This document shows, piece by piece, positions 3,303 to 7,585 of a stretch of 7,611 nucleotides of DNA. This DNA comes from Octopus sinensis. Taxonomy: Eukaryota. Where the stretch lies: the NCBI RefSeq assembly GCF_006345805.1, contig NW_021828717.1, forward strand, positions 1 through 7,611, in the 5' to 3' direction. The position numbers and the translations under genes were made by a program. How positions within the stretch are numbered: the stretch's first letter is position 1; the number at the start of each line of letters is the position of its first letter. The notes beneath the pieces were generated by a model. The model saw only the letters and a list, made by a program, of their open reading frames with translations, made no database searches and was not told the DNA's origin.

Positions 3303-3596
3303 ATTCAATTTAGTATTAAATCAAATTTCACTGTATAAATATATAAAATATAAATTAGAGATAAAACCACTATTATGCAACTCAAACAGTGATATACATA
3401 AACCAATACATAAATAATCAATATATATATATATATAATTTTTTTAAAGTATATAACTTATAACTAGATCTCAAAAAAGTATAAAATGAATGATAAATAT
3501 ATAATATAATATTATATATTTACATATTAAATTATATATTTATCATTCATTTTATACTTTTTGAGATCTAGTTATAAGTTATATACTTGAAAAACA

Positions 3597-3644
<48 letters not shown>

Positions 3645-3759
3645 ATTATTTATGTATTGGTTTATGTCTATCACTGTTTGAGTTGTATATAGTGGTTTTA
3701 TCTCTAATTTATATTTTATATATTTATACTGTGAAATTTGATTTAATACTAAATTGAAT
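3303..3759. repeat. Long imperfect inverted repeat (fold-back), ~200-230-bp arms with a 25-bp spacer
   Basis: 3303-3505 (attcaatttagtattaaatcaaatttcac...gaatgataaatatataat) is the reverse complement of 3531-3759, with several substitutions, small indels and different internal (TA)n lengths. The right arm continues ~38 bp unpaired to ~3797 before (TA)n. Confidence 0.92.
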
Positions 3760-3795
3760 TTTTCCCTGTAAGTTTGGAGTTATACTCCCTGAAAT

Positions 3796-3796
<1 letters not shown>

Positions 3797-3830
<34 letters not shown>

Positions 3831-3862
3831 TAATATATATATATATATATATATATCTAATA

Positions 3863-3905
<43 letters not shown>

Positions 3906-3907
3906 TA

Positions 3908-3971
<64 letters not shown>
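3797..3971. repeat. (TA)n microsatellite, ~175 bp with interruptions
   Basis: Directly visible. Confidence 0.97.
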
Positions 3972-3974
<3 letters not shown>

Positions 3975-4109
3975 GGCATTATACATACATGCCAGAAGGC
4001 ATTATACATACATGCCAAACGCTAAGAGGGACAATTAGTCATTTCTACCAAAAATATTACTAATCCCACCGAATGCAATTTTTCAAAGTAAGACATTTAA
4101 AAAAATATA

Positions 4110-4155
4110 GACCTGTATCACAGTGATTTCATACTTACGTACTCATCAGCAGGCC
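4110..4155 (-). ncRNA. Type I hammerhead ribozyme, second copy on the opposite strand
   Basis: gacctgtatcacagtgatttcatacttacgtactcatcagcaggcc is the exact reverse complement of 4575-4620. Confidence 0.9.
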
Positions 4156-4232
4156 TGAATGTATTATAAATAAACATTCGGTGGGATTAGTAATATTTTT
4201 GGTAGAAATGACTAATTGTCCCTCTTAGCGTT

Positions 4233-4278
4233 TGGCATGTATGTATAATGCCTTCTGGCATGTATGTATAATGCCCTC
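4233..4278 (+). repeat. Two tandem 23-bp units TGGCATGTATGTATAATGCCYTC, each a GGCAT/ATGCC hairpin
   Basis: Units at 4233-4255 and 4256-4278. The pair recurs at 4715-4760 and inverted at 3972-4017 as part of the larger duplication. Confidence 0.9.
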
Positions 4279-4574
4279 TATATATAAATTAATATGTTCA
4301 ATAAGAAATAATTATTTTCGAAATTTTTTCTCTTATGAGGTTTTTACGCTATCTACCTGACAATTTCTTGTTAAGTTTTCCTTATTAAGTAGTTGTCCTT
4401 AATTGCTAAATTTTTATTCCGAAAAAACTTTTCTCTCCCGAAATGCAATGCGTAAAAGTTTGCCATTTATCCGGATGTAATATATGTAAACTCACCCATG
4501 TGCTTCGTTGATGTTGAGCAGTTAGCTGATCGGCTTAAGCGGGGCAGGGTCGTTGTTTATTTATAATACATTCA

Positions 4575-4620
4575 GGCCTGCTGATGAGTACGTAAGTATG
4601 AAATCACTGTGATACAGGTC
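4575..4620 (+). ncRNA. Type I hammerhead ribozyme with palindromic helix III (Penelope/retrozyme type)
   Basis: Reads GGCCUG-CUGAUGA-GUAC-GUAA-GUAU-GAAA-UCAC-U-GUGAU-A-CAGGUC. Helix I: GGCCUG (4575-4580) pairs with CAGGUC (4615-4620), one G-U. Core: CUGAUGA (4581-4587) and GAAA (4600-4603). Helix II: GUAC/GUAU closed by GNRA loop GUAA. Helix III: AUCAC/GUGAU. NUH triplet is AUA, with predicted cleavage after 4614. Confidence 0.9.
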
Positions 4621-4913
4621 TATATTTTTTTAAATGTCTTACTTTGAAAAATTGCATTCGGTGGGATTAGTAATATTTTTGGTAGAGAAATGACTAATTG
4701 TCCCTCTTAGCGTTTGGCATGTATGTATAATGCCTTCTGGCATGTATGTATAATGCCCTCTATATATAAATTAATATGTTCAATAAGAAATAATTATTTT
4801 CGAAATTTTTTCTCTTATGAGGTTTTTACGCTATCTACCTGACAATTTCTTGTTAAGTTTTCCTTATTAAGTAGTTGTCCTTAATTGCTATATATATATA
4901 TATATATATATAT

Positions 4914-5051
4914 ACGACAGGCTTCATTCAGTTTCTCTACGAAATCCACTCACAAGTCTAGAAGACACCTGCTCAAGGTGCCACGCAGTAGAGCTGTAAC
5001 CGAAACCATGTTGCTGAGAAGCAAGCTCTTACCACACAGCCACATCTGCAC
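4914..5051 (-). mobile_element. SINE family A, 5' half (tRNA-like head), diverged and internally deleted
   Basis: cttaccacacagccac, aaccatg, tagaagacac and aaatccactcacaag are reverse-complement matches to 7141-7296. The segment ends at (TA)n. Confidence 0.8.
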
Positions 5052-5222: not shown

Positions 5223-5582
5223 TTCAAGGAAAAGTGGCAAAGAGGAATGGCATAAGTTTTCTATGAAAAACCAAAATACATCACAAATTTTAAATATATT
5301 CAAAATACCTTCTTCAGTTGTCAGCTAATGTTATCACAGTTTCAACAGCTACCGATATGATTGTCCATTTTTTTTTTCTGTTGCCAACACAACGGTGCAA
5401 GATTATAGTTGAGTAGAGAGGAAAATCAAACAAAATGCATATGCAAAGATTAACGGAAAAACTAGAAATCATAATAAACAGGAAAATATTTATAGAGTTC
5501 CGACGTGCGATATATTTCTTATAAGTTTTGCAAAAACGGATAAAATGCGAAACAAAATATAGTGGGATATATACGTAATATA

Positions 5583-5802
5583 TACGAGCGGGTGTTGAAA
5601 AGTTCCTGGCTTTGGGCAAAAGAAAATACATGAGGATCAGTTAATTGTGATTTTATTCAGCATACTCCTCACTCAGATTCACATATTTAATGCAGCTGCC
5701 CTTCGGTTTTCCTAAGCCCTGTAAAAGAACACGGAATGTTGGGCCTCCAACCAGGCCTTTCGTGACACCGTTAAAGCCAGGAACTTTTCAGCACCTATTG
5801 TA
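5583..5802 (-). mobile_element. Mariner-derived MITE, copy 1
   Basis: ~28-bp TIRs CGAGCGGGTGTTGAAAAGTTCCTGGCTTT / AAAGCCAGGAACTTTTCAGCACCTATTG, flanked by TA on both sides. Homologous along its length to 6233-6451. Confidence 0.85.
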
Positions 5803-5906: not shown

Positions 5907-5930
5907 TATATAAATAATTTATATATATAT
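5803..5930. repeat. (TATG)n followed by (TA)n microsatellite
   Basis: Directly visible. Confidence 0.95.
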
Positions 5931-6200
5931 TCGTCTATATTCGCTGCTTCTTCCAAGGAATCTAATGCTTTTAGCTTAGTTTTTCCTCGGGGATGGCCAG
6001 ATGGAACAATCTCGAGTATAAGCAGCCGAAATTGCAAAGATAATCTGGAACTCGACTTAGCAAAGAAAACTCCGAATGACCCGTCCTTGTGTTTTCTTGT
6101 CCCTTTTTTGTATCACCTGCCTGGATGTTTTATTGTCCCCTTTTTTGTATCATCTACCTGTCTGGATGCTTTGCGTTCTTGTCCCATCTTTTTTTGTATT

Positions 6201-6202: not shown

Positions 6203-6232
<30 letters not shown>

Positions 6233-6235
<3 letters not shown>

Positions 6236-6451
6236 GAGGGGTGCTGAAAAGTTCTTGATTTTGCTTTAAAAAAATTTATGAAGATCAGTTAATTATGATT
6301 TTATTCAGCATACTCCCCTTTCAGATTCACACATTTATTGCAACTGTCCTTTGGTTTTTCTAAGCCCTGTAAAAAAAACTCGGAATGTTGGGCCTCCAAC
6401 CAGGCCTTCGTGGCACCCTTAAAGCCAGGAACTTTTGAGCATCCCCTCGTA
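6233..6451 (-). mobile_element. Mariner-derived MITE, copy 2, retaining transposase C-terminal coding sequence
   Basis: TIRs CGAGGGGTGCTGAAAAGTTCTTG / CCAGGAACTTTTGAGCATCCCCTCG followed by TA (left side reads CA). The minus strand encodes KAWLEAQHSEFFLQGLEKPKDSCNKCVNLKGEYAE*, matching the mariner C-terminal pattern W...Q..EF...GI.KL..RW.KC....GEY.E. Confidence 0.88.
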
Positions 6452-7139: not shown

Positions 7140-7294
7140 GAGTGGCTGTGTAGTAAGTAGCTTCCTTACCAACCACATGGTTTCAGGTTCAGTCCCACTG
7201 CTTGGCACGTAGGGCAAGTGTCTTCTACTATATCCTCGGGCCAAGCAAAGCCTTGTGAGTGGATTTGATAGACGGAAACTGAAAGAAAACCCGT

Positions 7295-7333
<39 letters not shown>

Positions 7334-7585
7334 GTGTGTGTATGTTTGTGTGTCAGTATTTGCCTCCCCCCCACATCGCTTGACAACCGATGCTGGTGTG
7401 TTTACGTCCCCATAACTTAGCGGTTCGGCAAAAAAGACCGATAGTATAAGTACTGGGCTTACAAAAGAATAAGTCCCGGGGTCGAGTTAAATAAAAGAAA
7501 AAGTTTTTGAAAATCTCAGAAAAGTTAAAGGCGGTGCTCCAGCATGGCCGCACGTCGAATGACTGAAACAAGTAAAAGAGAGAGA
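7139..7585 (+). mobile_element. tRNA-derived SINE (family A), near full length, with internal (TA)n/(TG)n tract
   Basis: A-box-like TGGCTGTGTAGT (7143-7154), B box GGTTCAGTCCC (7186-7196), CORE-like GGGCAAGTGTCTT, internal microsatellite ~7297-7352, 3' tail GGCGGTGCTCCAGCATGG...GACTGAAACAAGTAAAAG. Homologous pieces occur elsewhere in the window. Confidence 0.85.

Follow-up and report, generated by a model that had tools for sequence, protein, structure and literature searches.

What kind of element lies in the middle of this octopus contig, and how did it get there? The window, the whole stretch of DNA that was analysed, is 7,611 nucleotides long, makes up an entire contig of the source genome and contains a single retrozyme insertion. 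The sequence-only reading had described this insertion as a young, non-coding element related to retrozymes and Penelope-like elements (PLEs), built from a partial tandem and an inverted truncated copy and lying in (TA)n. Self-alignment bears out this architecture (Table 1). The direct arm consists of one 480-nt unit plus 234 nt, with 4175-4408 repeated at 4655-4890 at a period of 480, and then of 482 after an AG insertion; the inverted arm (3964/3972-4176) corresponds, in reverse complement, to 4554 through about 4760-4768, a segment that crosses the unit junction. The self-matches (blastn E of 1e-119 and 3e-108) exclude chance. The two extra nucleotides, at about 4684-4685, are the sole difference between arms and units, as had been claimed, and were seen in the window alone among the matched units compared, so that they represent a private mutation or a sequencing error. 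Since both ends of the element merge into (TA)n, its outer limits are uncertain by 2-8 nt. The ORF scan found no frame of 60 or more amino acids within it. The right flank, for which an empty allelic site was sought, is single-copy in the assembly, and the head-to-head architecture recurs at dozens of other loci.

Table 1. Positions in the window of the insertion, its target and its inferred functional sites.
Feature	Position	Strand	Remarks
(TA)n target, left side	3796..3971		repeat analysis
Inverted arm	3964..4176	-	truncated on its 5' side (unit position 380); 3' terminus at fixed site A (unit about 105-112, where it grades into TA)
Type I hammerhead motif, inverted-arm copy	4110..4155	-	motif match
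Head-to-head junction, 2-nt microhomology	4175..4176		arm overlap
Full 480-nt unit	4175..4654	+	33% GC, no ORF, strong fold relative to shuffles
Hairpin (two 23-nt repeats), then fixed 3' end site A (unit 105-123)	4233..4297	+	inferred RT start site
Conserved hairpin, then fixed 3' end site B (unit 231-243)	4367..4417	+	inferred RT start site
Insertion site of a 1.7-kb ORF1-only element in other copies; empty in the window	4510..4532	+	locus comparison
Type I hammerhead motif, direct arm	4575..4620	+	motif match
Partial second unit, terminating at fixed site B and containing the private AG insertion	4655..4890	+	self-alignment
(TA)n target, right side	4889..4914		repeat analysis

Other repeats share the window with this insertion. 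Immediately to the left of the target microsatellite, at 3303-3795, there is an inverted-repeat element among TA tracts, whose arms (3303-3455 and 3608-3759) are 88-99% complementary. Two copies of a roughly 200-nt TA-flanked repeat, presumably MITE-like, are found at 5578-5790 and 6226-6430 and are 78% alike over a stretch of 152 nt. Dispersed SINE-like repeats (families D16-D18 and D20) occupy 1200-1610, 2000-2310, 5930-6200 and 7140-7560, and a 68-nt tandem lies at 2070-2211. At position 4450, the G of the assembly is T almost throughout in DNA runs, a private mutation or an assembly error.

Hammerheads had been named by the sequence-only reading as background for such elements, and a hammerhead motif is indeed present in each arm. 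In the direct arm, stem I is formed by 4575-4580 and 4615-4620, the core by 4581-4587 and 4600-4603, stem II by 4588-4599 and a near-palindromic stem III by 4603-4613, with cleavage predicted after 4614. An Rfam search of the window did not detect this hammerhead and returned only spurious microsatellite and miRNA matches. The pair at the base of stem II is G.U, A-U or U.U, versus the usual G-C, and a motif with the canonical base closing stem II gave no match in the source genome. A U.U at this place is known from the active Amex2 ribozyme of the axolotl (PMC7229834), and a short, near-palindromic stem III fits the dimer-dependent type of hammerhead (PMC4209133). Between the window family (F1) and a sister family (F2), the core is invariant except at position 7 and four stem pairs are changed on both sides, a covariation that amounts to few events because only these two families were compared. 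In one test of Xenopus retrozymes, eight of nine showed no cleavage (bioRxiv 10.64898/2026.07.22.740005).

The unit is also strongly structured. The plus strand folds, when linear, with a z of -5.4 relative to shuffles, and as a circle it reaches -125.8 kcal/mol (z -6.2, 40 shuffles), versus -85.4 for the minus strand. It thus displays the features of retrozymes, being non-coding, below 45% in GC (33%), strongly self-paired and provided with a type I hammerhead motif per unit. The window copy has one hammerhead per arm, where the preprint (bioRxiv 10.64898/2026.07.22.740005) calls arrays with at least two 'active'; it is therefore likely to be a dead-end daughter that would yield no monomer. 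Many other loci of the 480-nt family carry two or more hammerheads in one array.

The family to which the unit belongs is large. In the source genome it gave at least 194 matches from the 39 scored of 1071 candidates, and full-length units are 93-100% identical. The exact 28-nt hammerhead motif has 2104 matches genome-wide (control, 0), which count units and not insertions, and a motif common to F1 and F2 has 3565. The copies sit in (TA)n, and tandem arrays with a period of 480 reach about 11 units (L033), or 14 in the sister family (L188). The window family is thus a young, non-coding, hammerhead-motif-bearing 480-nt repeat, and the proposed retrozyme/Penelope-like assignment agrees with its many copies, its tandem multimers and its Penelope-type architecture. 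Contigs of two public runs, whose RNA origin is only presumed, cover all 30 bins of the unit, which we do not count as evidence of expression.

Two related families carry hammerheads of their own. F2 is about 72% identical to F1 and has a period of about 478 (L097:3370-4547, L117:997-2078). The older F3, with 2423 candidates, copies 85-90% alike and a period of about 515 (L203:2572-3611), has in common with the unit the region around both of the end sites discussed below. More distant hammerhead relatives were searched by sequence patterns. Other hammerhead-like motifs with the same start of stem III (L191-L202) gave 391 matches versus 36 in the control, and among these loci L195:1933-5507 and L200:1938-3598 are 99%-identical tandem dimers with periods of about 1747 and 809 and one motif per unit. 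The flank of L031 was considered as a related family and ruled out, having no match to the unit. A Pol III A/B-box reading of 4519-4555 was likewise dropped, as inspection by eye against the usual consensus revealed no B box.

How such copies were inserted is recorded in their ends. The circularly permuted start points that had been suggested were found in part: 5' ends vary, whereas 3' ends are not permuted and fall at two fixed sites about 120 nt apart. At site A there are 51 3' ends, at unit positions 105-123 (38 of them at 113-117), and at site B there are 48, at 231-243 (39 of them at 234 or 237). Each site is preceded by a hairpin that is kept in F1 and F2, and the 3' ends overlap the target by a few T/A letters. 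Two one-armed copies (L144:1424-1562 and L172:3461-3678) end at unit 40-42, a possible minor third end.

The two sites are used in pairs. Of 60 two-armed head-to-head insertions whose ends could both be seen, 56 have one arm terminating at A and its partner at B; the remaining four are atypical, and neither A+A nor B+B occurs. Independent, even choice of the sites would give such a count with a probability of about 1e-17 (by arithmetic). The pairing was found in 28/29 independent insertions of the F1 best-hit set (L002 and three loci with the same flank each counted once, L046 atypical), in 9/9 of F2 (four off-edge insertions and one interrupted one omitted), in 15/18 of the position-ordered sample of C1, read by eye (three atypical ones counted, three off-edge ones omitted), and in 4/4 of F3, also read by eye. 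One-armed copies number nine in the F1 set and nine in the F2 set. Either the A or the B arm may be the longer one. In the two sets in which this was counted, B arms extend past site A in 30/30 and 9/9 insertions, and both arms are longer than one unit in 12/30 and 5/9. The arms share 1-11 nt at 29 of the 61 junctions, abut exactly at 8 and are separated by 1-36 nt at the other 24.

The arms of an insertion also resemble each other in sequence. Arm-to-arm divergence in three sets was 0.006 within insertions versus 0.014 between them, 0.010 versus 0.043, and 0.009 versus 0.022, and was lower within insertions in 25/28, 11/11 and 16/18 cases, respectively. For variants known from at least three loci, fixation across every unit that covers the site was seen in 59/62, 117/126 and 66/89 cases. 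The 23 unfixed diagnostic cases among the 89 belong to F2, eight of them to L112, which mixes haplotypes. Variants private to one locus among the 85 sampled, and fixed there, number 10, 14 and 11, and extend over up to 15 segments and both arms. Such sharing of a haplotype by units and arms is what repeated copying of one monomer would predict. Variants confined to a single unit (120, 61 and 101 cases) come from later mutation or assembly error. Inside the arrays at L036:3214-5124 and L040:4202-6105, variants repeat with a period of two units, which suggests later block duplication or assembly effects; block duplication would mean that some array growth followed insertion. Arrays appear to be born in the insertion event.

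Taken together, it is highly likely that these insertions arose by PLE-type priming at two sites. A purified PLE protein cuts the two strands of its target and extends each of them; it has been predicted to form a dimer, and its two internal RT starts define the tail (PMC11167929). We consider it probable, with somewhat less assurance, that the element is a non-autonomous retrozyme whose RNA, a circular monomer, serves in trans as the template of a Penelope-type RT/GIY-YIG protein, with the two ends of the break acting as primers. According to this model, arrays with at least two hammerheads would be transcribed and serve as source loci, and their RNA would self-cleave to monomers and then probably circularise. 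A PLE protein, likely a dimer, would cut both DNA strands in (TA)n, whereupon the two 3'-OH ends would prime synthesis on a single RNA, one of them at A and the second at B. The cDNAs would be extended round the template over varying distances, through the hammerhead and beyond the start used by their counterpart, and would finally be joined head to head by short microhomology.

The same two-site priming may also have used a different template, namely a linear multimer that is transcribed from a homogeneous source array and left uncleaved or cleaved in part. Unprocessed RNA is the main substrate of the purified PLE, which did not require its own hammerhead in vitro (PMC11167929), and transcripts of young, homogeneous arrays would look alike. 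In the best-hit F1 set, more 5' ends than expected lie near the cleavage site (11/67 versus 3.6 expected, p 0.0009), which could indicate that some templates were linear and cleaved; the F1 positional set (2/32) and F2 (1/47) have no such excess. We nevertheless judge a linear multimer unlikely as the general template, for arrays hold the many single-unit variants counted above, yet recurrent variants are nearly always fixed across units; the sample-unique variants are fixed as the copying of one monomer predicts, and the hammerhead core is conserved in three families.

Considerably less probable is that the copies derive from the pLTR of a coding Penelope element, as 5'-truncated remnants or through local satellite expansion, with no independent RNA replicon. 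Against this, what lies 5' of multi-unit arms is another unit or the junction and never an ORF, arrays with a common haplotype are present on both inverted arms, and there are three related non-coding families of different ages. The preprint does derive non-LTR retrozymes from pLTRs with later local amplification, and finds 21 of the 22 Xenopus TEs that match retrozyme families to be PLEs (bioRxiv 10.64898/2026.07.22.740005); moreover, the architecture of our copies is identical in kind to that of PLE insertions, and two arrays contain block duplications. The search for a parent covered part of the PLE families; neither 30 loci of one coding PLE family nor 12 loci with related hammerheads, which gave F3, yielded a coding element that has sequence in common with the unit. 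The element in the window lacks the RT and GIY-YIG ORF of autonomous PLEs, and the linkage to such an ORF for which a check had been suggested was never found in the loci read.

A coding family that could be of the relevant type is nevertheless abundant in the source genome. It has GIY-YIG (PF01541) and RT (L036:1002-2470; L051-L080), comprises 17,928 candidates and is decayed; it bears a zinc-finger-like motif ahead of the nuclease and, as judged by eye, has two end points in (TA)n, separated by roughly 55 nt. In our reading it is Neptune-like. The coding PLE beside the array in L036 was ruled out as a parent, as the only sequence shared in the 30 loci was the array in L051 itself, and the PLE fragment in L194 is a separate insertion; in both loci, TA and other repeats stand between the PLE ORFs and the units. 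Another nuclease frame that is PLE-like was noted at L049:8008-8760. We infer that a PLE protein is the partner that acts on the retrozyme in trans.

That the window copy is an assembly artefact or a fold-back duplication at a microsatellite has only a negligible chance of being true, for although the window is a whole 7.6-kb contig and its own head-to-head junction was not bridged among the read contigs listed from two public runs, 56 loci with differing junctions show a structure that follows the same rule, and contigs of these runs contain seven head-to-head-type joints of other copies (one contig each, short side 21-29 letters). Neither a single-copy unit, nor a chimera, nor a mere terminal repeat of a coding PLE, the outcomes that would have spoken against the sequence-only reading, was encountered.

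Metazoan non-LTR retrozymes are likewise non-coding, low-GC, self-paired tandem units with one type I hammerhead each, and PLEs have been proposed as their mobilising partner (PMC7229834; bioRxiv 10.64898/2026.07.22.740005). The octopus unit is 480 nt, versus about 170-400 nt for invertebrate retrozymes and 51-972 in the preprint. Unlike these, the octopus insertions bear the PLE signature directly, in two fixed starts, an inverted arm and a TA target, and no parent pLTR was found for the family; the RNA circles shown for retrozymes of other animals (PMC7229834) are a prediction for the octopus family.

Insertions of EN+ PLEs share with the octopus copies partial tandems, an inverted 5'-truncated copy, a one-ended extension or tail, a bias for (TA)n, a hammerhead and two internal starts (PMC8557442, PMC11167929). 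The two starts of the PLE tail are 30-40 nt apart, as compared to about 120 nt in the octopus retrozyme; further, the octopus unit has no ORF, either end may be on the longer arm and both arms may be multimeric. The starts of the anole PLE show no homology, while the octopus ends have a short TA/AT overlap with the target. Non-autonomous elements of Chlamys such as MRC1 are also non-coding, PLE-mobilised and frequently present as several copies joined head-to-tail (PMC8557442), with the difference that no such partner was found for the octopus family.

Twin priming of L1 offers another comparison. There, both DNA ends prime on one RNA and give rise to an inversion, with microhomology at the joint; the stretches of RNA copied into the two cDNAs do not overlap, and the second site is variable. 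In the octopus insertions, both sites are fixed and the arms copy the same stretch.

The class of element is already known, while the paired-end rule and the single-template fingerprint are absent from the retrozyme and PLE papers compared. New with respect to the systems described in these papers are the spacing of the starts, the strict pairing, the overlapping copying by the arms, arrays born at insertion and a three-family non-coding lineage for which no parent was found. Our literature search gave no description of such a family in octopus or cephalopods, nor of the paired A/B end rule; Repbase, most subscription journals and the supplements of PMC7229834 and of the preprint, where the family could be listed, lay outside it.

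The retrozyme unit is itself a site of insertion. A 1.7-kb element with one ORF1-like frame was observed in several loci (L032:4609-6303, L034:4675-6374, L042:4572-6272, L087, L090, L097 and L098). Its frame encodes a weak CCHC knuckle below the Pfam cut-off and no RT, and its insertions have an apparent duplication of 22-23 nt. Five of its 30 best loci are at the same nucleotide of the F1 unit, on different retrozyme haplotypes, 2 are at the matching F2 site, 17 are in one other repeat and 6 are elsewhere. It looks like a site-preferring non-LTR element targeting retrozyme or PLE-type repeats, which we take to be Tx1-like. The repeat at 5930-6200 of the window resembles, by eye, its commonest target repeat.

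One may speculate, with somewhat less than even confidence in the whole, that the three families form a long-lived lineage of protein-free circular RNA replicons without a coding parent. Their integration would be the work of an asymmetric dimer of Penelope RT that holds a single RNA circle, primes both broken DNA ends at two dedicated sites, each marked by a hairpin, and makes two simultaneous passages round the circle. The thousands of insertions would then be a record of how the Penelope tail and inversion arise and of how retrozymes spread, and the unit would in addition be a preferred target of a second, site-specific retrotransposon.

The transposition cycle of Penelope, or the mobilisation of retrozymes, is called unresolved in three of the papers cited (PMC8557442, PMC11167929, bioRxiv 10.64898/2026.07.22.740005). 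The octopus family unites both problems: its unit is that of a retrozyme, its young copies number in the thousands and show the Penelope insertion signature in full, and its insertions are a valuable natural record of this mechanism. The A+B rule, together with the haplotype shared by the arms, constrains the mechanism to two primings per break on one type of template, and the family supplies an RNA that is short and defined enough for use in vitro. Were the template circular, these insertions would be evidence, written in the genome, that an RT related to telomerase carries out rolling-circle reverse transcription in the germ line of an animal.
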